From: Rickettsiales bacterium
Lineage (GTDB): Bacteria; Pseudomonadota; Alphaproteobacteria; Rickettsiales; UBA3002
Reading direction: 5' to 3'
DNA length: 35,080 nt
NCBI GenBank assembly: GCA_044225085.1
Contig: JBGAJE010000002.1
Coordinates: 1-35,080 of the forward strand
Shown here: positions 5,207 to 35,080 of the stretch, in pieces
How positions within the stretch are numbered: position 1 is the first letter of the stretch
How the letters are laid out: every line of letters begins with the position of its first letter
The notes under the pieces: generated by a model
Database searches by the model: none
Told to the model about the DNA's origin: nothing
The model's input: only the letters and a program-made list of their open reading frames with translations
Position numbers and translations under genes: made by a program

Positions 5207-6205
5207 ATGGCGAGGCTGTCTCCAACGCCGGTTTTGGTAACGGGTGCCGAGGGATTTATTGGCAGCGCTGTTTGTGATGCGCTGCTGGCTCAAGCAGTGC
5301 CGGTGCGTGCAGCCTCGCGTTACGCGATTCGTGACTCTTCTCACCCCTTATTGCAGCCGATGGCGATCGGCACGATGAATTACACGACGGATTGGCGTGA
5401 GGCACTGGCACCATGTGGCGCAGTGGTGCACACTGCCGCGCGGGCGCATGTGACGTCGGAAACTGCCGATGATCCGCTGAGTGAATTTCGGCGGACGAAT
5501 GTGGAAGGCACGCTCGCCCTTGCTCGACAAGCACTGGATGCTGGGGTGAAACGTTTCGTTTTTATCAGCACGGCGAAGGTGCTCGGCGAGGGCCAAGCGA
5601 TGCTCTATACCGATACCTCCCTGCCCGCACCAAAGGATGCTTATTCGATCTCGAAGTGGGAAGCGGAGCAAGGCTTGCGCGATCTCACGGCAGGCACGCG
5701 GATGGAGCTGGTGATTTTGCGGCCGCCGCTGGTTTATGGGCCGGGGGTGAAAGCGAATTTTCTGCAATTGATGCGGTTGGTCGATAAGGGTTATCCGCTG
5801 CCGTTTGGGGCGGTGGTTAATCGGCGGAGTTTTATTTATCTCGAAAATTTGGTGCAGGCGATTTTGCTGTGCCTCACGCATCCGGTAGCGGCCAATTCAT
5901 GTTTTTTATTGGCCGATGCGGAACCACTTTCGACCCCTGCCCTTATTCGTGCGATTGCGGCTGCGCTTGATCGGCCCGCGCGGCTTTTTCCGTTACCGGC
6001 TTCGGTGATTCAATGTGCTGCTAAGTTGTGTGGAAAAAGTGAAATGGCGGATCGGCTATTAGGCTCGCTGATGGTTGATGGTTCGGGAATTCAACGCGCC
6101 CTTAATTGGTCGCCACCGGTCAGCACTGCGGCTGGGTTGAAAAAGACGGCGGAGTGGTTTAAAGCGGAGTTTCATCACCCTAACATGGCTGCCCTGCGTG
6201 GATAA
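5207..6205 (+). CDS. NAD-dependent sugar epimerase/dehydratase (SDR family)
   Basis: ATG 5207 (MARLSPTPVLVTGAEGFIGS) provides a GxxGxxG Rossmann motif. YSISK provides the YxxxK catalytic motif. The track ORF start at 4703 is an antisense extension over the GT gene. Confidence 0.85.
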   Translation: MARLSPTPVLVTGAEGFIGSAVCDALLAQAVPVRAASRYAIRDSSHPLLQPMAIGTMNYTTDWREALAPCGAVVHTAARAHVTSETADDPLSEFRRTNVEGTLALARQALDAGVKRFVFISTAKVLGEGQAMLYTDTSLPAPKDAYSISKWEAEQGLRDLTAGTRMELVILRPPLVYGPGVKANFLQLMRLVDKGYPLPFGAVVNRRSFIYLENLVQAILLCLTHPVAANSCFLLADAEPLSTPALIRAIAAALDRPARLFPLPASVIQCAAKLCGKSEMADRLLGSLMVDGSGIQRALNWSPPVSTAAGLKKTAEWFKAEFHHPNMAALRG

Positions 6206-7265
6206 TTCGCTTCTATTTTCCGCTATCATTCCTTTGCTCGCCGGCTAGACGGCGTGGTGTATTGAGGCGTGGCTCATTCGGCACGCGGAGCGTTTGAACT
6301 GCGTGGTGAACCCCAATCATCGGTCCTCGCATGTGAACCCGACACCAGGGAGCGGCGGTATTGGCATTGTGGTGGGTAGTCTGGCGGCGGGCGTGGCACT
6401 GCTGAGTGATTTTGGGATTCATGGGTTGTTGGTGATGATTCTATCACTCATGATTGCGGCGATTGGGTTGCGGGATGATATTCGTTACCTCACCGTCAAA
6501 ACGCGCTTGCTGGTGCAAGTGTTGGCGATTGGCGGATTACTATTCGCATTGATGCCATTTTTCTCGGTCGATAATATTACGCTGTACTCGCTGTTTCTCT
6601 TAGGCTTCATGCTTTTTGCCGGGGTGTGGTGGCTCAATTTGTTCAATTTCATGGATGGGATTGATGGCATGGCTGGCATGCAGGTGATTTTCATGCTGCT
6701 AGCCGTGGTTGCGCTTGGCTACTGGCAACACCCGGATATTTTGCTGAGCACGACGTGTATTTGGATTATTTCGCTCGCGGCGGCGACGGCGGGGTTTTTG
6801 CTACTGAATTGGTCGCCCGCCCGGATTTTTATGGGGGATGTGGGAAGCCTCTATCTCGCCTTTATGGTGTTTGCCATTATGCTGTGGTCGGTATTGCAAG
6901 ACTGGATGACGTTTCCGGTTTGGCTGATTCTCGGCGCGGCGTTTATTACGGATACGACTACCACATTATTGATCCGCATCTTGCGTGGGGAGCGGTGGTA
7001 TGAGGCACATCGCAGCCATGTGTACCAGCGACTCTCGCGTTATTGGGGTAGCCATGCGGCCACTAGCCGGGCTTATCTGGCAGTGAATCTTATTTGGCTG
7101 ACACCGCTTGCTTTCCTCGCCCTCGGGCCCGAGGTGACTTATGGTTGGTGGCTAGTAGGGTTGGCCTATGCCCCCCTTGTTCTTGGTTCCCTTTGCCTTG
7201 GGGCTGGCCGACCAGGCGAGATTACTAAATCGCTAAAACCAGCACAAACGCCTTATATTAGCTAA
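6198..7265 (+). pseudogene. WbpL/WecA-type polyprenol-phosphate sugar-1-phosphate transferase with in-frame TAG at 6246-6248
   Basis: Motifs NPNHRSSH, DDIRYL, NLFNFMDGIDGMAG and FMGDVGS are present. The same frame upstream of track ORF 6294..7265 reads GTG(6198)-DNSLLFSAIIPLLAG-TAG-TAWCIEAWLIRHAERLN, a TM1 segment cut by an amber codon. Confidence 0.6.
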
Positions 7266-7326: not shown

Positions 7327-8418
7327 ATGCCATTGCAGTTAGCGAATCCTAGCCGTGTCGTCGCCGAGCATATCCGGCGCGGGGAAAATGTTGGGGTGAT
7401 GGATGACCACCGTAACCCTGACAACGCTGCACTTGTTATGGATCCAGCAGCATTAAAGCTATATGCCGAGGCTGGGCTCAAAGATATTATGCTCGAAATG
7501 GATTCGCATTCCTTCAAACGCTATGAGCAACTTCAGGATCAAGTACGTCACGGCACACTTAATAGGGATCAAGTCCGTAATATTATTAAGCGTGAAGGCT
7601 TATATTTTGCGTATACAGATCAAAACGGGCGCGCGGGGCAAGATATCGATCAACGTGCCGATCTTATCTATCACACGGCAAAGCTGAATATTAAGCTGCA
7701 TTCCTATGATGATCTAGAGGCCTGTGCAAAACGCGCTTACGATTCGCTTTCGGATGAAGATCGCGCGCTTTGGCCCAGCCTGAATGCTATGGTCTATGAC
7801 ATGGCCCAAGTTTCGGCGGGCGCACTTCATGTTTCCGCTGAAAAGCAAGAGGCACTTACACGTTTCCAGGAACTTATTCTTAACGAGCGCGTTGAGCTTA
7901 ATCCGCTTATCGCGACGAAGACGGACGACCATATGGGACAAATGACGGCTCAAAATCTTCAGGGCCGTTCTGTTTTGTTTCTTTATGGTGGAGGCCATAT
8001 GATAGCAGGGAACGATTTGGATGATCGTATCACAGCTTACACAGGCCAGCCGACCGTCAAATTCATGACAAATGATCCGCAATTGCGGGATATTCTACAA
8101 CCTTTTGTGGACATACGTCATGGCGCGGTGGATGTACCAAATTATGTCTATGACCCTCATACAGGTGAAGTCCGAGAAGTCCGCAATGGAGTTCGTGCAG
8201 CGGGACGCCAGGAAATGCAAACGTTCGCGCCACCTGTGCCGGGGGCGCCGGAGCGCACCGGACCGGGTGAATGGTGCAATTTAGACTTTGGCAATTTGAT
8301 GCGGTGGGCCTGTTCCTCGCAAGTGGCGCAGGGTGTGCCTAACCCAACCCCCTCTGTGCAAACGCTGCCAGCTGCTCCTGTGGCTTCCGATCAAGACCGG
8401 GGTGGCAGCAGGGGATAG
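7327..8418 (+). CDS. hypothetical protein (orphan; weak ChaN/Tiki-like motif order)
   Basis: 363-aa ORF of AT-richer composition with no TM segment or signal peptide. Motifs GVMDDHRNPD, LEMD and LYGGGHM occur in that order, followed by a Pro-rich C-terminal tail. Confidence 0.6.
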   Translation: MPLQLANPSRVVAEHIRRGENVGVMDDHRNPDNAALVMDPAALKLYAEAGLKDIMLEMDSHSFKRYEQLQDQVRHGTLNRDQVRNIIKREGLYFAYTDQNGRAGQDIDQRADLIYHTAKLNIKLHSYDDLEACAKRAYDSLSDEDRALWPSLNAMVYDMAQVSAGALHVSAEKQEALTRFQELILNERVELNPLIATKTDDHMGQMTAQNLQGRSVLFLYGGGHMIAGNDLDDRITAYTGQPTVKFMTNDPQLRDILQPFVDIRHGAVDVPNYVYDPHTGEVREVRNGVRAAGRQEMQTFAPPVPGAPERTGPGEWCNLDFGNLMRWACSSQVAQGVPNPTPSVQTLPAAPVASDQDRGGSRG

Positions 8419-8448
8419 CTAAAAGACGGGTTTTAGGTGGTTTTACTG

Positions 8449-8477
8449 TTGACAGGTGGGCCGATCCTGGGTAGTTA
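8449..8477 (+). promoter_or_regulatory. candidate sigma70-type promoter of rpmJ
   Basis: TTGACA (8449-8454), a 17-nt spacer, then TAGTTA (8472-8477), about 30 nt upstream of the rpmJ ATG. Confidence 0.4.
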
Positions 8478-8507
8478 GCGTCCTCATTTTGTATTCTGGG
8501 GACTACC

Positions 8508-8633
8508 ATGAAAGTTCTAAGCTCTTTGAAATCCGCCAAAAAACGCGACAAAAACTGCCGCGTGGTTCGCCGTAAAGGCCGCTTGTATGTCATCAACAAG
8601 CAAAACCCACGGATGAAAGCCCGCCAAGGCTAA
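8508..8633 (+). CDS. rpmJ: 50S ribosomal protein L36
   Basis: 41-aa ORF missing from the track because it is under 60 aa. [41 protein letters not shown] matches the non-zinc L36 form common in alphaproteobacteria. Confidence 0.9.
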
Positions 8634-8641
8634 GGCCCGGC

Positions 8642-8869
8642 GTGGAACATCCCGCCACCCCTCTAAGCAAAGACGCGCATCGCCGTTCGTTCGCCAAAGC
8701 TGTCAGCTGGCGCATTACGGGTAGTATTGACACGTTCATCCTGAGTTGGATTGTTACCGGCAGTGTGCATATCGCCGGCACGATTTCGGTGATCGAGATT
8801 TTTACCAAAATTATGCTGTTTTATGTCCATGAGCGTATCTGGGGTAAGATCCGCTGGGGCAAAAATTAG
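8642..8869 (+). CDS. small membrane protein, DUF2061-like
   Basis: RSFAKAVSWRITGSIDTFILSWIVTGS...EIFTKIMLFYVHERIW resembles the conserved DUF2061 pattern. GTG start lies 9 nt after rpmJ. Confidence 0.65.
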   Translation: MEHPATPLSKDAHRRSFAKAVSWRITGSIDTFILSWIVTGSVHIAGTISVIEIFTKIMLFYVHERIWGKIRWGKN

Positions 8870-8876
8870 CCCACGT

Positions 8877-9425
8877 TTAAGCCCATTTAATCGAACAGCC
8901 AATCGAAGCGGCTTGTTTGGCCGGCCCTTTGCCGGTGGCGACGATTTCCTTCATGGCGAGCAATAATTCGCGTTTGGGGTTGGGGAGGATGTTTGACCAG
9001 GACTCATCCAGCCGTCCGCGATATTGCAACTCAAGCCCCGCATTGAAGCCGAAGAAATCCGGTGTGCAAACGGCGCCATAGGCGCGTGCGACGGCCTGAG
9101 TTTCATCGATCACATAGGGAAACGGGAAGTGCTTTTCGTGTGCGAGCTTTTGCATGTTGGCGAAAGAATCATCGGGATAGGACTTTGCGTCGTTGCTCAT
9201 GATGGCGATGGTGCCGATACCCTCGGCCGCCAAGGCGCGTGCATCGCTGATGATGCGATCGAGCTGTTTTTGCACATAGGGGCAATGGTTGCAGATGAAC
9301 ATGACCAGCAGCCCTTTTGGCCCGCGGGCGGATTCGAGCGTATGCTGCTTGCCATCGACCCCGTGTAGGGTAAAGGGCGCGGCTTTCCAGCCAAGATTGG
9401 CTTGGGGGGTTTCTGTGCTCGGCAT
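8877..9425 (-). CDS. thioredoxin-fold protein (AhpC/TSA-like, CxxC)
   Basis: Start taken at MPSTETPQ (ATG 9425), inside ORF 8877..9503. Carries the FICNHCPYV redox motif and a thioredoxin-like fold pattern. Confidence 0.85.
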   Translation of the reverse strand: MPSTETPQANLGWKAAPFTLHGVDGKQHTLESARGPKGLLVMFICNHCPYVQKQLDRIISDARALAAEGIGTIAIMSNDAKSYPDDSFANMQKLAHEKHFPFPYVIDETQAVARAYGAVCTPDFFGFNAGLELQYRGRLDESWSNILPNPKRELLLAMKEIVATGKGPAKQAASIGCSIKWA

Positions 9426-9614
9426 GGTGTTCTCTCTTATGCGTATTTTTTTATAACATCGTCTATGCGCCGATTTTGAGGAGAAATCAATCGCCTCGGG
9501 CAATATTTAGAAATTTCATAAAAATCAATCTACTTCCCGGCATATCGCGGTGCAATATAATTGCGTTTTTATGCTACTCATGCTACATTTGCTTCCTCAA
9601 CGTAGGAGAGCAGG

Positions 9615-9998
9615 ATGGTCACCGGCGTTACTAATTCGGCGATTCGTTACATCGATCAACAAGCGCAGCGTATCGAGCAAAGCAACGCGAAGATCGCGAG
9701 TGGGAAAGTCTACACTCCCAATCCCAACAATATCACCACCTATACCCGTGCAGCGACAACGGATACGGCGGATTTGACCGGGATCACTAACCCGGATGAT
9801 CCGAATAATTTGAGTCCGATCAATGTTTCTTATAACCAGATCGGGCCGACCAGCACCACGACAGAAGAAGGTGGTGACGTGGATGTGGCAGCTGAAGTGG
9901 CAGAGCGTAGCAATGCTAGCACGCTGTTTGCCTTCGGGATTGAGGGTCAGAAAAAATCGAACCAGCTGAAAAAGCATATCGTCGATATTCTGACTTAG
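9615..9998 (+). CDS. hypothetical small protein (orphan)
   Basis: 127-aa ORF with a strong SD (AGGAG 7 nt before the ATG) and a Thr/Asn/Pro-rich centre. No confident family assignment. Confidence 0.5.
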   Translation: MVTGVTNSAIRYIDQQAQRIEQSNAKIASGKVYTPNPNNITTYTRAATTDTADLTGITNPDDPNNLSPINVSYNQIGPTSTTTEEGGDVDVAAEVAERSNASTLFAFGIEGQKKSNQLKKHIVDILT

Positions 9999-10023
9999 CG
10001 TTTAATTACATTTCAACTGACCC

Positions 10024-10646
10024 TTAGCGGCTCGCCATTTGTTGCGGAAGGCGCGTTAGTGGATCGACCGCTTTATCGCCTTCGCGCATAGCGAAATGCA
10101 ATTGCGGCGCTTTTACCCGCCGCTGGTGCCAACGTAACCGATGATTGCGCCTGCTGCAATTTGTTCATCCTTATGAACGCTGACGGTGCGGGCGTGGGAG
10201 TAGGATGTGAGGTCGCCGTTACTGTGGCGGAGGATGACCATATTGCCGAAATCTTTCACGTTGGCGCCGATGAATGCCACCTCGCCTGCGCGCGCCGCGC
10301 GAATGGGTGTGCCTTCCGGCGCGGCGATGGCGATGCCTTCATTGCCTAGGCCGTTTGTTTGGGCACCGAATTTTTGGATCACCATGCCATTCACCGGCCA
10401 TTGCCAGCCGCTATTGCTGGGGCTGATGGGCGCGGCGGCCATTTGCGTTGGTGGTGGTAAGTTGCTGGATGTGACGCTTGTGACTTCGGCCGCTTGAACG
10501 GTGGGGCCGCTATCCGCTGCCACGATGCCGTTACGGCTATAGAAATTATGGCTACGGTCATCGAGCACGGCCAATTGATCTTGTCCACAGCTTGCGAGTA
10601 GGACAGTCGTGATGATCATGAGCGCGGCAACAGCGGACAGGCGCAT
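10024..10646 (-). pseudogene. nlpD: NlpD-like lipoprotein with degenerate LytM (M23) domain, frameshifted near its 3' end
   Basis: Lipobox LLASC. The LytM core NEGIAIAAPEGTPI lacks the catalytic H and D, as in E. coli NlpD. The ORF stops after GYVGTSGG (10113). The conserved continuation VKAPQLHFAMREGDKAVDPLTRLPQQMASR* is in another frame (10116 down to 10024). Confidence 0.7.
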
Positions 10647-12510: not shown

Positions 12511-13284
12511 TCACTTCACCACCGCCCGCAACTGCTTCAACACCGCGTAATTCGTCATATCCATATTAATCGGCGTCACGGTAATCCACCCCTCTTTAAT
12601 CTTCATATAATCCGCATCCGGCTGCTCGGTGAAGGGCTCCGTCCGCTGCCCGCCGATCCAGATATAGGGGCGCCCATGCGGGTCCACTCGGCGATGCAGA
12701 TTATCATCCAGCTTCCGCCGCCCCTGCGGGCAGGCAGCACGCCCCTTCACCAGCTCCACCGGCAGCGCCGGGAAGTTCACATTCATAAACGTATCATGCG
12801 GCCAATCAATCGCCGTCAAATCCCGAATAATCCCCGCCGCGAACTGCTCCGGCACATCCCAGCTAATGCCCTCATTCGTCAGCACGTTGGAAAACGCGAT
12901 GGCCGGAATCTCCAGCAACGTCGCCTCCATCGCCGCTGCGATCGTGCCGGAATACGTCACATCCTCCGCCAGATTGCTCCCGCGATTCACGCCCGATAAC
13001 ATCAACCCCGGCCGCTTATCCTTCAGCATTTCCATCACACCCACCAGCACCGCATCCGTCGGCGTGCCCATCACCGCGAACCGGCGCTCACTCACCTGCC
13101 GATACCGCAGCGGCGCATGCAGCGACAACGAATGCCCCGCCCCGCTTTGCTCCTTATCAGGCGCCACGACCCACACATCGTCCGACAACGTCCGCGCAAT
13201 GCGCTCCAGCACCGCAATGCCCTCAGCCTCAACGCCATCATCGTTACTGATCAGGATACGGGTGTTTTTTAGATTGATTGCCAT
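12511..13284 (-). CDS. surE: 5'/3'-nucleotidase SurE
   Basis: RILISNDDGVEAEGI, GTPTDAV and SGVNRGSNLAEDVTYSGTIAAAMEA match SurE signatures. Confidence 0.95.
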   Translation of the reverse strand: MAINLKNTRILISNDDGVEAEGIAVLERIARTLSDDVWVVAPDKEQSGAGHSLSLHAPLRYRQVSERRFAVMGTPTDAVLVGVMEMLKDKRPGLMLSGVNRGSNLAEDVTYSGTIAAAMEATLLEIPAIAFSNVLTNEGISWDVPEQFAAGIIRDLTAIDWPHDTFMNVNFPALPVELVKGRAACPQGRRKLDDNLHRRVDPHGRPYIWIGGQRTEPFTEQPDADYMKIKEGWITVTPINMDMTNYAVLKQLRAVVK

Positions 13285-13439
13285 TTACCTCTCCCATCGG
13301 GAGAGGTCTAAATTCGCCTTCGAATTTAGGTTGAGGGCCACACCGCTCAATCCCCCATCAGCGCAAAATAAAAGACACGCACAAGCCCTCACCCGAAATC
13401 GTAAAGAACGATTTCGACCTCTCCCGATGGGAGAGGTAA
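13285..13439. repeat. palindromic element, family B (copy B1, serS-surE spacer)
   Basis: Terminal hairpins TTACCTCTCCCATCGGGAGAGGTC / GACCTCTCCCGATGGGAGAGGTAA. Inner hairpins AAATTCGCCTTCGAATTT and CGAAATCG-N7-CGATTTCG. GTTGAGGGCC pairs with GCCCTCACC. Confidence 0.85.
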
Positions 13440-13453
13440 CGCGGCGCACTTCG

Positions 13454-14815
13454 TTATGCATGATTGCCACCAATCACCGTCATCCCACCCATATAAGGCA
13501 CCAGCGCGTCCGGAACTTTCACCGACCCATCCGCCTGCTGGTAATTCTCCAAAATCGCCACCAGCGTGCGCCCCACTGCGAGGCCAGAGCCATTCAGCGT
13601 ATGCACAAACCGCGTCTCCTTCTCGCCGGAGCGATAGCGCGCCTTCATCCGACGTGCTTGGAAATCACCGCAGTTGCTGCAGCTCGAAATCTCGCGGAAC
13701 GTATCCTGCGCTGGCAGCCACACTTCGATGTCAAACGTCTTGCGCGCCGAAAACCCAGTATCCCCCGCACAAAGCAGCATCACCCGGTAATGCAGGCCGA
13801 GGCGCTTGAGCACCTCCTCCGCACAGCCCAACATCCGCTCATGCTCCGCCTCCGATTGCTCCGGCGTGGTGATACTCACCAGTTCCACCTTCGAAAACTG
13901 GTGCTGCCGAATCATCCCCCTTGTATCCCGCCCCGCCGAGCCCGCCTCAGAACGGAAACACGGCGTCCACGCCGTCATCCGCCGCGGTAGCTGCGCAGCA
14001 TCTAAAATTTCATTCGCGGCTAAATTCGTGAGCGACACTTCGGAGGTCGGAATCAATCCAAACCTGCTAGTTTTGAATCCTTGCTTCTCTTCTTCAAATC
14101 TCTGCTGAAACCATTTCATTCCTTCGGATGGACTTAACTTTAAAGCTTCTCTCCATTCCATATTATTAGTGAAGAAGAGATCTCCTTCAAACTTCGGCAA
14201 CTGCCCCGTGCCGAACAACGCCGCATCTTTTACCAGATACGGCACCTGGTGCTCGGTATACCCAAACTCGCCGGTATGAATATCGAGCATAAAACTCGCC
14301 AGCGCCCGCTCCAGCTTGGCGAGCGCCCCGCGCAACACCACAAACCGCGCACCGGAAAGTTTGGCGGCGGCCTCAAAATCCATCAGCCCCAGCCCTTCGC
14401 CAATCGCGACATGGTCCTTCGGCGACGCAATCGCAGGCTTGCTGCCCACCACGCGCAACTCCACATTGCCCGATTCATCCGCCCCATTCGGCACATCATC
14501 CGCGAGGATATTCGGAATGCTCGCCAGCGCCGCGTCAAACGCACCGCCCTCACCGCTTTCCAGTGCTGCGATTTGCTCCTTTAGTGCTTTGCCCTCAGCG
14601 AGCAGCGGCGCGATGTCGCGCCCTTCCTTCTTCGCTGCTGGAATACCCTTCGCGATCTCATTCGCACGCGCCTGCAGCGCTTGCACCTGTGTTTTCCCGC
14701 CACGATCTTCCGCGTCGAGCTTTTGCAGCGCCTCCACATCCACCGCATAATTCCGCCGCGCCATCGCCGCCTTGAATGCATCCGGGTTTTTGCGAATCAG
14801 TTCTTTGTCGTGCAT
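13454..14815 (-). CDS. serS: serine--tRNA ligase (with ~30-aa in-frame insertion)
   Basis: [50 protein letters not shown] and [16 protein letters not shown] are class II SerRS motifs. Confidence 0.95.
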
Positions 14816-14826
14816 GGTATCTTCCT

Positions 14827-15606
14827 TTATTCAGCCATCTCAGCGGGGATAATGAATGCGTCCGCACTGGCGCGGCGGCGCTCGATTAATCGGCCAACCA
14901 CAATAGAAACCTCATAAAGCGCATAAAGCGGAATGAAAAGCAGGACTTGGCTCAAGATATCCGGCGGGGTGATAAATGCCGCGATGGTGAGCAAAATCAC
15001 CACAGCGTAACGGCGGCCCTTTGCAAGCGTTTGCGCCTTTAAAAAGCCGACGCGAATGAGCAGCGTGAGCAAAATCGGCAATTGAAACGCGAGGCCGAAC
15101 GCGAGGATGATATGCATCACAAGGCCGAGATACTCACTCACCTTCGCTTCAATCGTCAGCGGCAACCCACCTTGTTCTGCGGGAATTTCAAACGAGATAA
15201 AAAACGCCCAAGCTTTCGGCAATATCAGGTAATAGGCCATCGCCGCGCCGATAAAAAACAGAGCCGGCGCGCAGACGAGATACAGCGCCAGCACCCAGCG
15301 TTCGCTTGAACACCCCGGTGCCACGAACAAATACACCTCCGTCGCGATATACGGAAACGCCACAAAAAAGCCGCCATAGATAGCGAGCTTGATATAGGTC
15401 ACAAATGTTTCGGTGAGGTTGGTCGCGATCAGCCGATGTTCATTATCGCCAAACGCTTGCGCCAGCGGGTGCAGCAGAAACTGATAAATATCTGCCGCAA
15501 AAAAATAGCATAGGCCGGTGGCGACAAGCCACACAGCGACGCTGCGCATCACCCGGCCGCGTAGCTCGATGAGGTGGGAAATCAGCGGGGTTTCTTGGTC
15601 AGTCAT
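14827..15606 (-). CDS. tatC: twin-arginine translocase subunit TatC
   Basis: Start taken at [18 protein letters not shown], overlapping the tatB stop by 8 nt. Six TM segments are typical of TatC. Confidence 0.95.
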
Positions 15607-18102: not shown

Positions 18103-19850
18103 CGTAACTCCTCCACCGGCACCACGCCGCATACATTTAGGGCGGACGCTACAACAACCGCCATCGCCCGTGCAAGCGCTAATCGCGCCGTTGTGAGTGC
18201 AGGCTGATCGGCCTGGACGAAGCGGATATCGGCATCCTTCGAGCCCACGTTCCACAGGCCATGGAAGGCGGCGGCCACCTCCTGCACATAGTAAATAATC
18301 CGGTGCGGCTCATGCGCAATTGCCGCCTGCTCCACCTGGCGTGGCCATGCGGCGAGTAGCTTAATGAGGGTGAGCTCCGCGGGATGGTTTAACACCGTAA
18401 GCTGCTCAGCCGTGACGGTTTCGGAAGCTTTGAACGCAGCCGGAGCTTGCTCCGCCGCCAATCGCAGCACGGATTTGGCGCGTGCATGGGCGTATTGCAC
18501 GTAGAATACGGGATTATCTTTCGATTGTTCTTTCACTTTTTCTAGGTCGAATTCCATTACCATGTCGCTTTTGCGCATGAGCATCACGAAGCGCAGAATA
18601 TCGCGTCCTACGGCTTCCATCACATCCCGCACAGTAATGAACGTCCCCGCCCGTTTGCTCATTTTAAACGGCTCGCCATTCTGGAACAGATGCACCAGCT
18701 GGCATAAAATCACATCACAATCCGCCTTGCCGCCTGAAAGCGCCCGCACTGCCGCCCGCAAGCGTTTGAGGTATCCCCCATGGTCCGCCCCCAGCACCAA
18801 AATCTGGTGGTTGAACCCGCGCGAAATTTTATCCTGCGCCAGCGCGAGATCCCCCGCGATATAGGCATAACTCCCGTCCGATTTAATCACCGGCCGGTCC
18901 GTATCGTCGCCATAGGCCGTCGATCGGAACAGCGTCAGCTCCACCGGCTCCCAATCCTCCGGCGCCTTGCCCTTTGGCGGCTCCAGCACGCCGCGGTAAA
19001 TCAGCCCGTGCCCGCGCAACGTATCGATCGCTTCCTCAATCTTGTTCGCCCGCAGCAGCGCCGCTTCGGAGGTGAACACATCATGATAAATCCCGAGATC
19101 CGCTAGATCCTGCTTGATCAGCGCCATCATCGCCTCAAGCGCGATGGCTTTGCATGCAGGCAACCACACATTCTCCGGTGCATCCATCAGCTCGCTGCCA
19201 TGCACCGATTGAATCGCCGCGCCCGCTGCTTTCATATATTCACCCGGGTAAAGCCCCTCGGGAATCTCCCCGATCATCTCCCCGCACGCCTCGCGATAGC
19301 GCAGATACGCCGACCGGGCGACCTTCTCTACCTGCGCGCCCGCATCGTTGATGTAATATTCCTTGGTAACGCTATAGCCCGCCTTCAGCAGCAGCAGCGC
19401 AAGCGAATCGCCCACCACTGCCCCGCGCGCATGACCCACATGCATTGGCCCGGTCGGGTTCGCTGAGACATATTCCACATTGATTCGCTCGTTTTTGCCG
19501 ATGGTCGAGTTCCCAAATCCCGTTCCCTCGCTCAAAATCGCCGGCACCACCGCCTGCCACGCGCTGGGCGTGAGCCGGATGTTGATGAAGCCTGGGCCGG
19601 CGACGCTTACTTCCTCCACCGCCGGAAGCCCGCGCAGTTTTTCTGCAATTTTATCCGCAATCTCGCGTGGTTTTTGTTTGGCCTGCCCTGCGAGCACCAT
19701 TGCCGCGTTGGTCGATAAATCCCCGTGCGTCGCATCCCGCGGCGGCTCCAGCGTCACGGCGTCGAGCTTCATGCCGGGAACAACAGCCTCGGCAGCAGCG
19801 AGCACATGGTTACGATAAATTTCAAAAATATTCACTGGCAGCCCCTTCAA
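18099..19850 (-). CDS. argS: arginine--tRNA ligase
   Basis: SANPTGPMHVGHARG (HIGH) and FKMSKRAG (KMSK) motifs are present. The length is typical. Confidence 0.95.
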   Translation of the reverse strand: MKGLPVNIFEIYRNHVLAAAEAVVPGMKLDAVTLEPPRDATHGDLSTNAAMVLAGQAKQKPREIADKIAEKLRGLPAVEEVSVAGPGFINIRLTPSAWQAVVPAILSEGTGFGNSTIGKNERINVEYVSANPTGPMHVGHARGAVVGDSLALLLLKAGYSVTKEYYINDAGAQVEKVARSAYLRYREACGEMIGEIPEGLYPGEYMKAAGAAIQSVHGSELMDAPENVWLPACKAIALEAMMALIKQDLADLGIYHDVFTSEAALLRANKIEEAIDTLRGHGLIYRGVLEPPKGKAPEDWEPVELTLFRSTAYGDDTDRPVIKSDGSYAYIAGDLALAQDKISRGFNHQILVLGADHGGYLKRLRAAVRALSGGKADCDVILCQLVHLFQNGEPFKMSKRAGTFITVRDVMEAVGRDILRFVMLMRKSDMVMEFDLEKVKEQSKDNPVFYVQYAHARAKSVLRLAAEQAPAAFKASETVTAEQLTVLNHPAELTLIKLLAAWPRQVEQAAIAHEPHRIIYYVQEVAAAFHGLWNVGSKDADIRFVQADQPALTTARLALARAMAVVVASALNVCGVVPVEELR

Positions 19851-20871: not shown

Positions 20872-21894
20872 TTAGTGCGGCCGATCACGCGAAGCAGCTT
20901 TCCCGGCACTGACACCAAGTGCCGCGCCATTCTCCACCACATGCTCACCGCCCGCCATACGCTGCATAGGCTGGGTGATTGAGCGGTCGATAAGAGAGGG
21001 ATCTACTGGGCATCGACCGGCGGCCACTTCAATATCGGCCCCTTGGCGGGCAAAATCGAGACGCGGACCTATAGCTGGGTGATGAGGATCAAGCTCGCGC
21101 TCAAACTCTGCTAACGATATACCGCGAGCAGCAGCGATCCGTTTAACGTCTTGGTAGTTAGGATCCATGGCATCAGCAAATTTTTCGCCCTGACATAATT
21201 CGACCGCTTTCGAATCTGCTCGCCTTTCTCTCGCGTGAGTTAACTGTCCGCTTTCATCGTTATGTACCGCTGCAAGGCTAGCCGGAGATAGGTCCTTATT
21301 CGCAACATGCCCTAGTTCATGCGCCAGAACACCAAGAGCATCCTGAGTCGATAAATTAGGGTCCATAAAGATCACCGGATCGCCATCCCTAACCGCATAA
21401 GCCGCTCCAAGAGAATTTATCTTTTCTCTCTCTATAGCCAGCAATCTTGGCTCTTTAATATTATAACCTTGGTCATTCAATTTTTTGACCATTGCTTTCA
21501 ATTGCGTTTGTACCTCTGGATTACTGTAAGGCGTCGTACTCACCGAAGCGATCTCTTCAGCCGTCAGAGAGTTCTCTTTAGCATCTTGCTCTGTCCAGCG
21601 GCGCGCAGCCTCGGGTACAAGAATGAATGGCGCGCCATTTTCGGCATGAAAAACCGTTGACATGCCCTGCTTATCAGGACGCCCATTATCGACAATGATA
21701 GCAGGGGCTGGCTCATTGGGATTATCCTTTACGAGCCGTTCATAGGCCTCCCGCGCTTTTGGCAAAAGGCTTCCTGACGGAATGAGCCTGGTGGGGCCCA
21801 AGGCTAGCCTTTGCGCGTGTTCTTCCTCAGGACTTATACGAATATTATCAGCCACAACACCCCTCGCAACAATACAATTATGGCTAACAAGCAT
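20872..21894 (-). CDS. soluble HExxH metalloprotease-like protein (M48-like), paralogue 2
   Basis: HELGH is at 21307-21321, followed by ...HARERRADSKAVEL. Shares TPYxNP, PRLxAI, AVHNDE and C-terminal GGEH blocks with paralogue 1. Confidence 0.7.
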   Translation of the reverse strand: MLVSHNCIVARGVVADNIRISPEEEHAQRLALGPTRLIPSGSLLPKAREAYERLVKDNPNEPAPAIIVDNGRPDKQGMSTVFHAENGAPFILVPEAARRWTEQDAKENSLTAEEIASVSTTPYSNPEVQTQLKAMVKKLNDQGYNIKEPRLLAIEREKINSLGAAYAVRDGDPVIFMDPNLSTQDALGVLAHELGHVANKDLSPASLAAVHNDESGQLTHARERRADSKAVELCQGEKFADAMDPNYQDVKRIAAARGISLAEFERELDPHHPAIGPRLDFARQGADIEVAAGRCPVDPSLIDRSITQPMQRMAGGEHVVENGAALGVSAGKAASRDRPH

Positions 21895-28592: not shown

Positions 28593-28662
28593 GCGCGGCG
28601 GTTCTCCCTGTTAGCCGTAATATAGTTACTTTTTCGGGAATTATTTACGGAAAACTCCTGCT

Positions 28663-28764
28663 CCCTCTCCCCTCGCGGGAGAGGGCTGGGGTGAGGGGGT
28701 TCTCCACTGGCGAAAAGCGGGGGTTGGCCCCCTCATCCTAACCTTCTCCCGCAAGGGGAGAAGG
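28663..28764. repeat. palindromic element, family C (copy C1, polA-divK spacer)
   Basis: CCCTCTCCCCTCGCGGGAGAGGG hairpin, GGGGTGAGGG pairing with CCCCTCATCC, and CCTTCTCCCGCAAGGGGAGAAGG hairpin. Starts 8 nt downstream of the polA stop. Confidence 0.8.
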
Positions 28765-28772
28765 GATAAAAA

Positions 28773-31700
28773 TTAATGCGCGTCGCCCCAGTGCTGGCCG
28801 ATGCCTGCTTCGACCGTCAGGGGGACGGAAAGTGCGGCTACATTTTCCATCGTGCGCTTCACTTGCGGGGCGAGCGCGGCGGCTTGGTCTGCTGGAGCTT
28901 CGATGATGAGTTCGTCATGCACTTGAAGGAGAAGACGCGCCCCTTTCACCTCTCCCACCGGGAGAGGTCGAAATCCGCCTTCGGATTTCGGGTGAGGGCC
29001 CGACAGTGAAGAAGACTGCAGCGCGGCGCCCTCACCCAAAATTTGCGGGGGCAAATTTTGACCTCTCCCGGTGGGAGAGGTAAGAAGTCCATGCACCTCA
29101 ATCATCGCGCGTTTGATGATATCTGCCGCTGTGCCTTGCAGCGGCGCATTGATTGCTGCGCGCTCCGAGAACGACCGGAAGTTCGGGTTCTTTGCATTAA
29201 TATCGCGCACGTGAATGCGGCGACCATACAGCGTTTCGACATATTCATGCTCGCGCGCGAACTGGATCGTGCGATCCATATATTCCCGAATCCCCGGATA
29301 GCGCTCGAAATATTTGCCGATATAGGTCGATGCCTCGGAGCGCGAAATACCGAGCTGCGCGCTTAAGCCATGCGCGCTGATGCCGTAAATAATCCCGAAA
29401 TTAATCGCCTTTGCGCGGCGGCGAATTTCGGGGGTCATTTGGTCGAGCGGCACGCCGAACATCTCGCTCGCCGTCACTGCGTGAATATCGGCACCACTGC
29501 GGAACGCTTCCTTCAGCGCGCCGATATCGGCCATATGCGCGAGCAGTCGTAGCTCGATCTGCGAATAATCCGCTGAGATAAGCTTGAACCCCGGTGGAGC
29601 GATGAACGCGGTGCGAATACGACGGCCCTCTTCGGTGCGGATCGGAATATTTTGTAAATTCGGATCGCTCGATGCCAGCCGCCCCGTGCTCGCCACCGCC
29701 ATTGAGAAACTCGTATGCACCCGCCCGTCGCGCGGCGATGTCGCCTTGGGCAACGAATCCGTATAGGTGCTTTTCAGTTTTGAATATTGCCGCCACTCAA
29801 GCACTTTGCGGGCGATCTCGTGCCCCTCTTCCGCCAGCGCCTCGAGCGTTGCGGCATCGGTGGTATACGCGCCACTTTTGCTCGATTTTTTACCACCGCC
29901 AAGCTGGAGCTTGTCATACAGCACCTCGCCCAATTGCTTCGGCGAACCCACTGAGAACGGCATGCCAGCGAGTTTGATGACTTCCTCTTCCAGCGCATTT
30001 ATTTTCAGTGCGAACTGGCCGGAGAGTTCGGTCAGCAACTTCACATCAATCGCCACGCCCGCCACTTCCATCGCCGCGATCACGGGCACAAGCGGCCGCT
30101 CGATCGTCTCATACACCGTCACTACATGGTTCGCGATGAGTTGGGGTTTTAGCAATTCATAAAGCCGCAGCGTAAAATCCGCATCTTCCGCCGCGTAGTC
30201 CGTCGCCGCATCCAGCGGCACTTGCGCGAAGTTGATTTTCGCTTTGCCTGTACCAGTGACGGATTCATAGGAAATCATCTTATGGTTAAAGTGTCGGTCG
30301 ACGAGAAAATCTAACCCATGCGCGTGCAACCCACCTGCCGTGCAGTAGGACATCAACATCGTATCCGCCACCGGCGATATGCGCGCACCATATTTCTCCA
30401 GCACCACGAGGTCGTATTTAATGTTATGGCCAACCTTCATTACGGATGGATGGGTGAGCATCGGCTGTAACAATTCCAGCACGCGTGGCAGTGAAAGTTG
30501 CCCAGGCAGCAGTTTCTTCTGCCCACTTGTTGGCGCATCAAATAAACTCGATTGCGGCACCGCGTCGCCACCCATTTCACTCACATGACCGACGGGGATG
30601 TAGCATGCCTTGCCCGGTGCCGTGCTCAGCGAAATACCAACGAGTTCCGCATCCACCGCCGCAAGCGATGTTGTTTCGGTATCTACCGCCAGCGTGCCCA
30701 CGCGCATCGCCTCGGTGATCCAACGTTGGAGTGCCGCTTCATCGGCAACCATTTCGTAATGCGCTTCAACTTTGTCATTCCCGCGAAGGCGGGAATCTTC
30801 TGATATTTGCGCCATATCCGAAGAGAGATTCCCGCCTTCGCGGGAATGACGTGTGGAGGGGTTCGTGAATCTTGCTGCCGCCGGATTTGCTGATGACTGA
30901 TGACTAGTGGCTGATTCACCTGCTAGTCCCATCTTCTTCGCGAGTGATGAAAAGTTCTGGGCATCCAAAAACGCCGCCAGCGCGGCGCTATCAAACGGCC
31001 GCGTCTCCAGCGCCGCCAGCGGCTCCGGCAGCGGCACGTCGTGCTTCAGCTCCACCAACTGCCGCGACATCCGCGCCGCCTCCGCATGCGTCGTCAGCAC
31101 TTCGCGCCGCTTCGGTTGTTTGATTTGATCGAGATGCGCCAGCACCCCCTCGAGCGTCCCGAATTGCGTAATCAACTCCGCCGCCGTCTTCGGCCCAATG
31201 CTCGGCACCCCCGGCACATTATCCACCGAATCCCCAATCAGCGCCTGCACTTCGACGACCTTATCCGGCATCACGCCGAATTTTTCCACCACCTGCGCGC
31301 TACCGATGAATTTCTGCTTCATCGGGTCCATCATCGTCACTTCACCATCAACGACGAGCTGCATCAAATCCTTGTCGGAGGACACAATCACCACCTCGCG
31401 CCCCTCGGCCCGCGCGGCCTCCGCATAGCTTGCGATCAAATCATCCGCCTCGTAATTCTCAAGCTCAATCGCCGGGATATTCAGCGCCCGCGTTACCTCG
31501 CGCACCAGTGGAAATTGCGGAATCAGCTCCTCCGGCGTTTCCGAGCGGTTCATTTTATATTCGGGATACAACTCCGAGCGGAAGCTCTTGCGTCCCGCAT
31601 CGAAAATCACCGCCAGCATATCGTGCTTATAGGTCTCGCGCAGCTTCAGCAGCATGGTGGTGAAGCCATAGACAGCCCCGACTTGTGTCCCATCTCGCCG

Positions 31701-34385: not shown

Positions 34386-35080
34386 CTAGATTTTGGCCGC
34401 ATCGATACCAACCGCATCGGCCAAATGCCTGAACCCGTCGCGCGCTAACAATTCCACCAACCCACGATTCACCCGCTCCGCCAGCCCAAAGCCCTGATAC
34501 ACTAGCGCCGTGTAAAGCTGCACCAAACTCGCCCCTGCGCGAATCTTCGCATACGCATCCTCTGCACTGCTAATCCCACCGACGCCGATAAGTGGCACCT
34601 TCCCGCCCGTTAGCCGATACATGGTGGCGAGTGCGGCGGTTGAAGCCTCAAACAACGGCCGCCCGCTGAGGCCCCCCGCCTCGCCCGCCAGCGCACTGCC
34701 CGCCACGCGGTCACGCGCAATCGTCGTGTTGCTGACGATCAGCCCATCGAGCTTCTCACCGAGCGCCACCTCCGCAATCGCCTCAAACATCGCCGGGTCC
34801 CCATCCGGCGCGATTTTGACAAAGATGGGTTTTGTTTGGCTGGATGGAGCGTCTTGAGCCCTCTCCCCTCGGGGGAGAGGGTTGGGTGAGGGTGCTATCA
34901 TCCGCTTTTCGTTGTTAGTCTCGTCGCCAGCGGATGGCCCCCTCATCCCACCCTTCTCCCCCATGGGGAGAAAGCGTGCCCGTTCCGCCTGCAACGCCCG
35001 CACCAGCGCTCGCAGCTCATCCGCCGCCTGCAGCGCCCGCAAACCCGGCGTGTTGGGCGAGGAGATATTCGCCGTGATGT
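34386..35080 (-). CDS. pyrD: dihydroorotate dehydrogenase (quinone), C-terminal part (5' end outside window), carrying a repeat-derived insertion
   Basis: The frame is open to the window edge: ITANISSPNTPGLRALQ...PIFVKIAPD...LIVSNTT...GGLSGRPL...IGVGGISSAEDAYAKIRAGASLVQLYTALVYQG. Confidence 0.9.
   Translation of the reverse strand, partial: ITANISSPNTPGLRALQAADELRALVRALQAERARFLPMGEKGGMRGPSAGDETNNEKRMIAPSPNPLPRGERAQDAPSSQTKPIFVKIAPDGDPAMFEAIAEVALGEKLDGLIVSNTTIARDRVAGSALAGEAGGLSGRPLFEASTAALATMYRLTGGKVPLIGVGGISSAEDAYAKIRAGASLVQLYTALVYQGFGLAERVNRGLVELLARDGFRHLADAVGIDAAKI
34859..34973. repeat. palindromic element, family C (copy C2, inside pyrD)
   Basis: CCCTCTCCCCTCGGGGGAGAGGGTTGGGTGAGGG...GGCCCCCTCATCCCACCCTTCTCCCCCATGGGGAGAAAG. 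Same module order as C1. Confidence 0.85.

Follow-up and report, generated by a model that had tools for sequence, protein, structure and literature searches.

The pyrD gene and the repeat within it

The window analysed here is the 35,080-nt stretch of contig JBGAJE010000002.1 (assembly GCA_044225085.1, a Rickettsiales bacterium), and the feature of interest is a palindromic repeat element that lies within the coding sequence of its pyrD gene. The C-terminal part of pyrD, comprising 230 codons plus the stop codon, was located at 34386..35078 on the minus strand, in an open reading frame (ORF) that remains open at the window end. This fragment covers the C-terminal two thirds of the protein, the 5' third of the gene lying beyond the window end. 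It encodes a class-2 (quinone) dihydroorotate dehydrogenase (DHODH): a match to Pfam PF01180 was obtained with E = 1.2e-42, the best PDB matches are quinone-dependent class-2 DHODHs with E-values down to 2.5e-42, and a Foldseek search with the pyrD model returned human, Eimeria and Plasmodium DHODH as the top matches (TM 0.71-0.74). Two conserved motifs frame the region discussed below. The NISSPNT motif (35049..35069, minus strand), upstream of the insert, contains the invariant columns N4, S6, S7, P8, N9 and T10, and the VKIAPD strand (34803..34820, minus strand; strand residues 86-89 of the model), directly downstream of the insert-bearing loop, contains the invariant K88, P91 and D92. The serine of NISSPNT is the catalytic serine of class-2 DHODH, and the lysine of VKIAPD is that of the flavin mononucleotide site. 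The DHO_dh fold, the Ser-type NISSPNT motif and the VKIAPD lysine, by which class-2 membership was judged, were all found.

Between these motifs the pyrD ORF reads ...ALQAERAR-FLPMGEKGGMRGPSAGDETNNEKRMIAPSPNPLPRGERAQ-DAPSSQTKPIFVKIAPD..., exactly the in-frame extra peptide that the initial annotation of this DNA had described. In codon coordinates, as used for loop-length comparison, the inserted codons (n = 40, peptide FLPMGEKGGMRGPSAGDETNNEKRMIAPSPNPLPRGERAQ) span 34854..34973 on the minus strand. Gly, Pro, Glu and Arg are abundant in the inserted sequence, and peptides encoded by the insert include GPSAGDETNNEK and MIAPSPNPLPR. The underlying DNA is a 116-nt element of a repeat family designated family C, an inverted pair of BoxC/PIT/TMECO-type modules at 34859..34974 (plus strand), and this span was used for sequence identity, fold energy and the metagenome copies. 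The element had first been placed at 34859-34973; the start was retained, while the end was moved, the element core running to 34974. The left module (34859..34892, plus strand) consists of the hairpin CCCTCTCCCCTCGGGGGAGAGGG (34859-34881), which is CCCTCTCCCC-TCG-GGGGAGAGGG, followed by TT and a third 9-mer, GGGTGAGGG (34884-34892). A central spacer of 47 nt (34893..34939), variable within the family, leads to the right module (34940..34974, plus strand), which consists of CCCTCATCC (34940-34948), CAC and the hairpin CCTTCTCCCCCATGGGGAGAAAG (34952-34974), which is CCTTCTCCCC-CAT-GGGGAGAAAG. The two arms are inverted copies of each other, 78% identical in reverse orientation. As RNA the element gave a fold of -80.5 kcal/mol (z = -8.3), and only one of the three coding-strand frames through it is free of stop codons, which is the frame that pyrD uses.

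A second family-C copy, C1, lies at 28663..28764 (plus strand), 8 nt past the polA stop codon, and is therefore intergenic, as originally noted. C1 and the pyrD element are built from the same four modules, with shared order and orientation, and the spacer of C1 is 15 nt shorter. The two copies share 84 of 97 aligned bases (86.6%), a score reached by none of 2000 shuffles, and identity was 86.6% in direct as against 78.2% in reverse orientation; the proposal that about 39 residues of PyrD are encoded by C1-type hairpin modules was thus borne out. Six matches to the hairpin core pattern were counted in the window, where 0.00 are expected. Because of the identity with C1, the core count and the fold energy, the observation in pyrD is considered real and far above chance. 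The terminal hairpins of another repeat family of the window, family B (13288-13306, 13418-13436, 28949-28967 and 29062-29080), share with family C a common core, CCTCTCCC-N4-GGGAGAGG, and the two families may be related mosaics of one hairpin module.

Absence of the insert from orthologues

Homologues of PyrD were collected from a search of 5.8 billion proteins. A search of the same set with the insert peptide alone gave no candidate that shared enough words. From SSPNT to VKIAPD the window protein has 76 residues, and 119 of 119 homologues have 31-38. The modal length, found in 89 proteins, is 37, giving a net insertion of exactly 39 codons, the removal of which restores the modal loop length exactly. 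Among 80 species-representative genomes no tblastn match exceeded 570 nt, whereas about 680 nt would be expected of a match that spans the insert. L001 and L002, the closest relatives, have the gene order of the window (pyrD - hydrolase - polA - divK - pleD) and short loops. The loop of L002 (protein P0001, 79% identical) is LQAARIPPLKPILVKIAPD, and that of L001 (GCA_037975565.1; 87% amino acid identity over a 134-residue C-terminal ORF) is LHAARAELPLLQAGGGRDRKPIFIKIAPD. No homologous loop of equal length was therefore present in the 119 proteins, the 80 genomes or L001 and L002, and the last two represent relatives without the insert, in agreement with the insertion proposed in the initial annotation.

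In L001, pyrD and polA (5339-6405 and 7813-10524) are each broken into several ORFs by single-base indels. This splitting looks like the product of an error-rich assembly rather than biology, and it is poor support for gene decay in the clade. The pyrD loops of both relatives (L001:5925-5965 and L002:1338-1358) contain pyrimidine-rich stretches that resemble collapsed remnants of BoxC hairpins: CCTCTCC-TGCAAGC-GGGTGGAGGG in L001 and TCCTCCCCT in L002. Their alignment scores were reached by 60 of 2000 (L001) and 15 of 2000 (L002) shuffles, uncorrected for six tests. Since palindromic TMECO pairs have been described in which a partial deletion left a hairpin (PMC4666352), a path by way of collapsed remnants is plausible, and the scores weakly suggest, as a lead and not a claim, that these loops are collapsed elements.

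In 12 of 120 PyrD homologues (P0007, P0016, P0022, P0041, P0043, P0058, P0063, P0077, P0084, P0086, P0100 and P0102) inserts totalling about 11-42 residues were observed in another loop, at reference positions 124-131, before IVGGNIGKNK. The sequence GEPERSERG is common to five of them, and P0084 and P0086 have the variants GEPER and GEPKC. Positions 124-131 are a second insertion hot spot in the PyrD of this clade. On L205, the Joint Genome Institute (JGI) contig of P0016, the DNA under the second-loop insert (10380-10510) shows no obvious palindrome.

Position of the insert in the protein

The insert had been assigned to the variable loop preceding the (P)IFVKIAPD strand of class-2 DHODHs, and both the PDB alignments and an AlphaFold model agree with this position. 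Query residues 34-81 are unmatched in the alignment with the M. tuberculosis enzyme, in whose chain residues 196 and 197 adjoin. AlphaFold2 was run on the 230-residue fragment with 84 homologues, and the mean pLDDT (predicted local distance difference test) was 82.5, with values of 90-98 across most conserved barrel elements. Residues 37-85 were modelled as coil with a pLDDT of about 49-56, and of about 50-56 in the insert itself, between a helix at 19-36 and the strand at 86-89.

The structures of Eimeria tenella DHODH (6aj5) and of full-loop Plasmodium falciparum DHODH (1tv5, 6vty) align across the insert, with loops of their own opposite it, while the alignments with loop-deleted Plasmodium constructs start only at residue 81. 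Residues 384-413 of Plasmodium DHODH are a disordered loop that was deleted for crystallisation (PMC4140291), and by index arithmetic on the alignments this loop maps to the segment that follows the catalytic Ser motif and precedes the VKLAPD strand. On these models and alignments the insert is probably a disordered surface excursion between the helix that follows NISSPNT and the VKIAPD strand.

Family identity of the repeat

The modules of the pyrD element are of the type called BoxC, PIT or TMECO, which is reportedly covered by the work of Bergler in 1992 and of Hoyne and Maher in 2000. We know of no function or spreading mechanism proposed for these repeats that has become established in the thirty years after their discovery. 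In a TMECO module a C-rich 9-mer is followed, across a loop, by a G-rich 9-mer and then, across a short loop, by another G-rich 9-mer, with the pattern CCCTCNCCC N3-6 GGGNGAGGG N3 GGGNGAGGG (Holder et al. 2015, PMC4666352). E. coli K-12 has 23 copies, described as 'always located intergenically', and five inverted pairs, each of a type A plus a type B module (PMC4666352). Oligonucleotides with the TMECO sequence fold into triplexes in vitro and cause polymerase to stall, and no promoter or terminator activity was found for BoxC (PMC4666352).

The left module of C1 fits the TMECO pattern exactly, and that of the pyrD copy fits it except for a second loop of 2 nt. The right modules of both window copies show one change mirrored across all three 9-mers, CCTTCTCCC / GGGAGAAGG / GGATGAGGG. 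In E. coli genomes a median of nine places were about 85% identical to the left module; matches labelled 'cpsG' are intergenic, lying in the wcaJ-cpsG spacer (one inspected). Metagenome contigs were scanned with a pattern that comprised the left hairpin and only the C-strand of the right hairpin, the tails being left free, and the inverted-pair architecture was found at at least 120 loci, with 127 elements among the matches listed. In these copies the third 9-mer covaries with its own hairpin. On the left, CCCTCTCCC/GGGAGAGGG occurs with GGGTGAGGG, G being at position 3, in 98 of 100 listed copies, and on the right CCTTCTCCC/GGGAGAAGG occurs with CCCTCATCC, which has the matching T, in 89 of 93. 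Such covariation is compatible with purine-motif triplet pairing, or with a protein that recognises each of the three 9-mers. A left module of the GGGTGAGGG type is combined with a right module of the CCCTCATCC type in both window copies and, in all, in 68 of 129 tallied copies (the two of the window and the 127 listed metagenome copies).

The pyrD element thus has the BoxC module pattern, is dispersed and multicopy, and forms inverted pairs of non-identical types. It departs from BoxC as published in its location, the pyrD copy being inside an ORF while C1 is intergenic. It was still filed as BoxC, because location describes the copies and not the sequence family. Judged from its sequences, family C is a widespread asymmetric inverted pair of BoxC-type modules. 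A limited literature search, which is no proof of absence, found no description of BoxC-type repeats inside ORFs.

Target-site duplications are absent from 85 of 91 complete listed copies and from both window copies, and the terminal pairing of complete copies does not extend outward. A classical miniature inverted-repeat transposable element (MITE) was rejected on the absence of target-site duplications. A family selected for coding was also considered and rejected: stop-free frames are only slightly more frequent than in shuffles, and the lengths of the complete listed copies show no bias towards multiples of three (37, 19 and 34 copies with a remainder of 0, 1 and 2). With no coding adaptation in the family, the in-frame copies point to survivorship rather than design.

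Copies in other genes and turnover of the repeats

Pfam checks were made on 19 of the longer ORFs that span metagenome copies. Three of the 127 listed copies are clearly intragenic, with domain matches on both sides of the element or across it. One lies in dnaE (L088, 427-4029, minus strand) at residues 552-581, inside PF07733. Another lies in a 2-oxoacid dehydrogenase E2 acyltransferase gene (L187, 3393-4832, plus strand) at residues 117-158, where a linker connects the lipoyl domain to the E3-binding domain, and the third in a WecG/TagA glycosyltransferase gene (L136, 278-1282, plus strand) at residues 205-237, inside PF03808. All three are in frame. The copies at L111, L131, L172, L203, L103, L125, L160, L176 and others were not counted as intragenic for want of Pfam support, nor were those at L141, L147 and L174, where domains lie on one side only. 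In-frame BoxC pairs are rare, at a few per cent of the listed copies, but recurrent.

Contig L205 has the gene order of the window and carries elements at 13414-13567, 15274-15355, 19407-19529 and 20876-20949. They include family-A-type elements (TTGTCATTCCCGCGAAAGCGGGAATC...), one of them within polA (12536-15514), and this polA also contains an inverted pair of BoxC hairpins. In-frame repeats therefore look like a clade trait.

The spacer between polA and divK has a different palindrome in each of three relatives (window 28593-28772; L002:7174-7385; L001:10650-10783). The window has a full family-C pair, L002 a solo hairpin, CTCTCCCTCGAGGGGAGAGGG, and L001 an unrelated long palindrome, AGAAGGGGCTGGG...CCCAGCCCCTTCT.

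DUF559 (PF04480) genes were found at most 250 nt from BoxC-type hairpins in five cases (L129:580-963, L143:2386-2742, L168:11303-11728, L151 and L130), with Pfam E-values of 1e-33 to 1e-42, and three of the genes are bracketed by hairpins on both sides. The loci were chosen for the repeat, so the association is biased and corroborates a lead without proving it.

Functional state of pyrD

The window protein keeps 41 of the 41 columns that are invariant in an 85-sequence alignment, including N4, S6, S7, P8, N9 and T10, K88, N117 and T118, GGLSG and GVGG. The visible 690 nt of pyrD contain neither a stop codon nor a frameshift. Logan contigs from other public sequencing runs (X1 to X4) gave partly independent support. 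X1, from a bioreactor, contains 34386-34832 at 100% identity. A contig of X2, from soil, matches 34928-35080 at 100% and joins the right arm of the element to pyrD. The right junction is also present in X3, with 6 differences in 142 nt over 34939-35080, in a strain that is about 4% diverged. An 821-nt X1 contig contains, between unrelated flanks, a 39-nt stretch of the left module (34857-34895) at 100% identity; this match suggests a recent copy or a conversion partner, and does not imply an origin in the same genome.

X4, from freshwater, represents a relative that is about 93% identical in pyrD. Its contigs diverge from the window at 34832 and 34978, on both sides entering BoxC-type hairpins. 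One junction reads ...GAGGTTAGCT-CCCTCTCCCCCTGCGGGAGA..., the other ...TCCTCCCGCAAGGGGAGGAGG-GACAACTCA, and in the pyrD frame 10 visible codons are open on each side, giving AELSLLPLRE... and ...SPAGGEGANLKPIF. The element of X4 is a different one: its hairpin loops differ from those of the window, and the stems are CTTCTCC/GGAGAAG in the window and CTCCTCC/GGAGGAG in X4, a compensated change. The distances of the two elements from the pyrD flanks differ too, by 6 nt at one junction and 16 nt at the other, and the flanks are about 93% identical. Two histories would account for this: a single old insertion whose sequence was later altered, through indels or conversion by other copies, or more than one hit on the loop. 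In the pyrD codons, X4 and the window differ by 17 synonymous and 5 conservative non-synonymous changes, a ratio that reads as a signature of purifying selection in lineages with an element in the loop. Neither the BoxC identity of the repeat, nor this different BoxC-type element in a related strain, nor the in-frame recurrence in other genes had been part of the initial annotation.

From the 41 retained invariants and the 17:5 codon pattern, pyrD looks functional. Several points weigh against this. The codon count was taken from short Logan contigs, possibly of more than one strain. The left junction (34833-34858) has no independent contig cover, as the X1 contig ends at 34832, and none of the RNA runs contains the stretch. 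Since the window contains no more of pyrD than its last 230 codons, a defect upstream is possible, as are gene decay in this genome and indel errors in the assembly, and a second DHODH gene might make this pyrD copy dispensable.

Origin of the insert

We consider it likely, with a probability of roughly 0.8, that a permissive surface loop of PyrD tolerates the element, a selfish or passenger repeat, and that the enzyme most likely still works. A multicopy palindromic repeat would be copied around the genome, and nearly all of its insertions into genes would be lost, as when they shift the frame or disrupt a structured part of an essential gene. The survivors would be those in a permissive loop, with an open frame and a length that keeps the frame. 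The ribosome would read straight through the pyrD element, adding a net 39 codons, and the barrel and active site should be intact because apicomplexan DHODHs have natural long disordered loops in the same surface segment. For the copying, a DUF559 nuclease and recombination between copies are candidates only. The passenger may be selfish DNA or may have arisen as a by-product of recombination. Our statements on translation of the insert, on enzyme activity and on copying of the repeat are inferences.

It is improbable that pyrD was inactivated, by the insertion or by damage upstream, and is now a young pseudogene in a cell where another DHODH or salvage supplies pyrimidines. Such a defect could lie outside the 230 visible codons, and pyrD and polA of L001 are fragmented, though this looks like assembly error; however, the 690 visible nucleotides have no stop or frameshift, all 41 invariants are kept, and the net insert is a multiple of three that uses the sole open frame of the coding strand. 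The excess of synonymous over non-synonymous codons in X4 (17 versus 5, the latter conservative) and the persistence of the right junction in X3, at about 4% divergence, also argue against a pseudogene. The element might instead have been co-opted, through mRNA structure, through an effect of a DNA hairpin or triplex on replication or transcription, or as a loop with a function. The strong predicted fold (-80.5 kcal/mol, z = -8.3), the retention of an element in the loop in at least three sampled lineages, and the triplex formation and polymerase stalling of TMECO in vitro (PMC4666352) are consistent with such a role. Against it, the elements of the window and X4 are strongly divergent while their flanks are about 93% identical, which argues against a conserved functional sequence, close relatives lack the element, and the peptide is modelled as disordered. 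A scan for intragenic terminators and promoters found none on the sense strand, and only two weak antisense terminator-like sites inside the spacer; no Rfam family matched above threshold, and BoxC had no promoter or terminator activity in published work. We regard co-option as quite improbable.

In favour of an assembly artefact, whether a misjoin mediated by the repeat or a collapsed repeat, the element is multicopy, the X1 contig ends 27 nt short of it, and 34833-34856 has no independent cover. Against it, the insert keeps the frame exactly and its removal gives back the modal loop length, and the X2 (100%) and X3 (about 96%) contigs join the right arm to pyrD, while single X4 contigs run from pyrD into BoxC-type hairpins on both sides; this explanation is very improbable. 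That an intron, an intein or translational bypass keeps the element out of the protein product is barely credible, even with a strong hairpin in the coding region. Group I and II introns are far longer than its 116 nt, and the only matches in Rfam were to generic (miRNA-like) hairpins, below threshold. An intein is impossible for a peptide of 40 residues that has no intein motifs. Nor is there any need or signal for bypass, as the frame has no stop and matched take-off and landing codons are absent.

A bolder idea, which we consider rather unlikely, is that the pyrD loop is a recurrent landing pad, where hairpin seeds already present actively receive, or are overwritten by, copies of BoxC-type pairs. 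This might be the work of the DUF559 nucleases that the same modules bracket, or of gene conversion between copies. A landing pad would explain why different family members occupy one loop (one in the window, X2 and X3, another in X4), the possible collapsed remnants in L001 and L002, and the lengthening of loops in polA, dnaE, the E2 acyltransferase linker and WecG.

Implications

Repeats of the BoxC/PIT/TMECO type had been described as strictly intergenic. The pyrD copy shows that an inverted BoxC pair can occupy the coding sequence of a core metabolic gene while the frame is kept, apparently with purifying selection continuing, and it offers a natural test case for the insertion tolerance of a TIM-barrel loop. 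Insertion and turnover of the elements provide dated events that could help to reveal how such repeats are copied. For annotation, repeats of this kind may lengthen real proteins as well as create spurious ORFs. If the landing-pad idea were true, it would amount to a general and unrecognised route of protein-loop evolution, driven by triplex-motif repeats.

Comparison with known systems

The closest parallel is provided by the Rickettsia palindromic elements (RPEs; Ogata et al. 2000 and 2002, reviewed in PMC10969869). These are 100-150-bp palindromic multicopy repeats, found between genes and in frame within unrelated housekeeping genes, and interpreted as selfish DNA (PMC10969869). As in RPEs, the peptide encoded by the pyrD element is at a position compatible with the fold, and the element behaves as an RPE does in being a palindromic multicopy repeat, in frame, in a housekeeping ORF and at a fold-compatible site. 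It differs in being a G/C-rich BoxC-type repeat while the RPE families are A/T-rich, although the two were set apart without a comparison of consensus sequences. The host also differs, being an uncultured alphaproteobacterium of bioreactor, soil and freshwater metagenomes and not Rickettsia. On both grounds, the match to BoxC and the host, the element was not filed as an RPE.

With BoxC/PIT/TMECO of E. coli the element shares the module design, the inverted pairs of two types and the lack of target-site duplications, and E. coli copies are about 85% identical to its left module. The pair in pyrD is inside an ORF and in frame, whereas the K-12 copies are always intergenic, and its right module, CCTTCTCCC/GGGAGAAGG/GGATGAGGG, is a variant outside the published pattern. 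The REP/REPIN-RAYT systems and MITEs are likewise short, non-coding, hairpin-forming dispersed repeats that occur as inverted doublets. Family C differs from REPs and MITEs in having no target-site duplications (85/91) and no outward terminal pairing, and no transposase or RAYT partner was identified for it (no whole-genome RAYT search was made); the gene seen between such hairpins at metagenome loci is DUF559, not a Y1 transposase.

At the protein level, the apicomplexan DHODH loops occupy the same segment, between the catalytic Ser motif and VK(I/L)APD, are of about 30-45 residues, and are disordered and dispensable for the crystallised enzyme (P. falciparum 384-413; E. tenella 6aj5). They are a lineage-wide feature of the protein that is unrelated to a DNA repeat, whereas the repeat-encoded loop of pyrD has so far been seen only in the strain of the window and X2, in X3 (about 4% diverged) and, as a different variant, in X4. 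Inverted repeats that are translated with their genes also occur in the mitochondrial genes of Nematomorpha (PMC6649704) and as intragenic ERIC/RU repeats in enterobacteria (PMC2759123), but these involve other genomes and other repeat families, and not triplex-type modules. A targeted, nuclease-linked turnover at protein loops is the less likely account of the pyrD element. The finding is well supported, but a known principle can explain it; it resembles the Rickettsia cases, with a repeat family for which only intergenic copies had been described.

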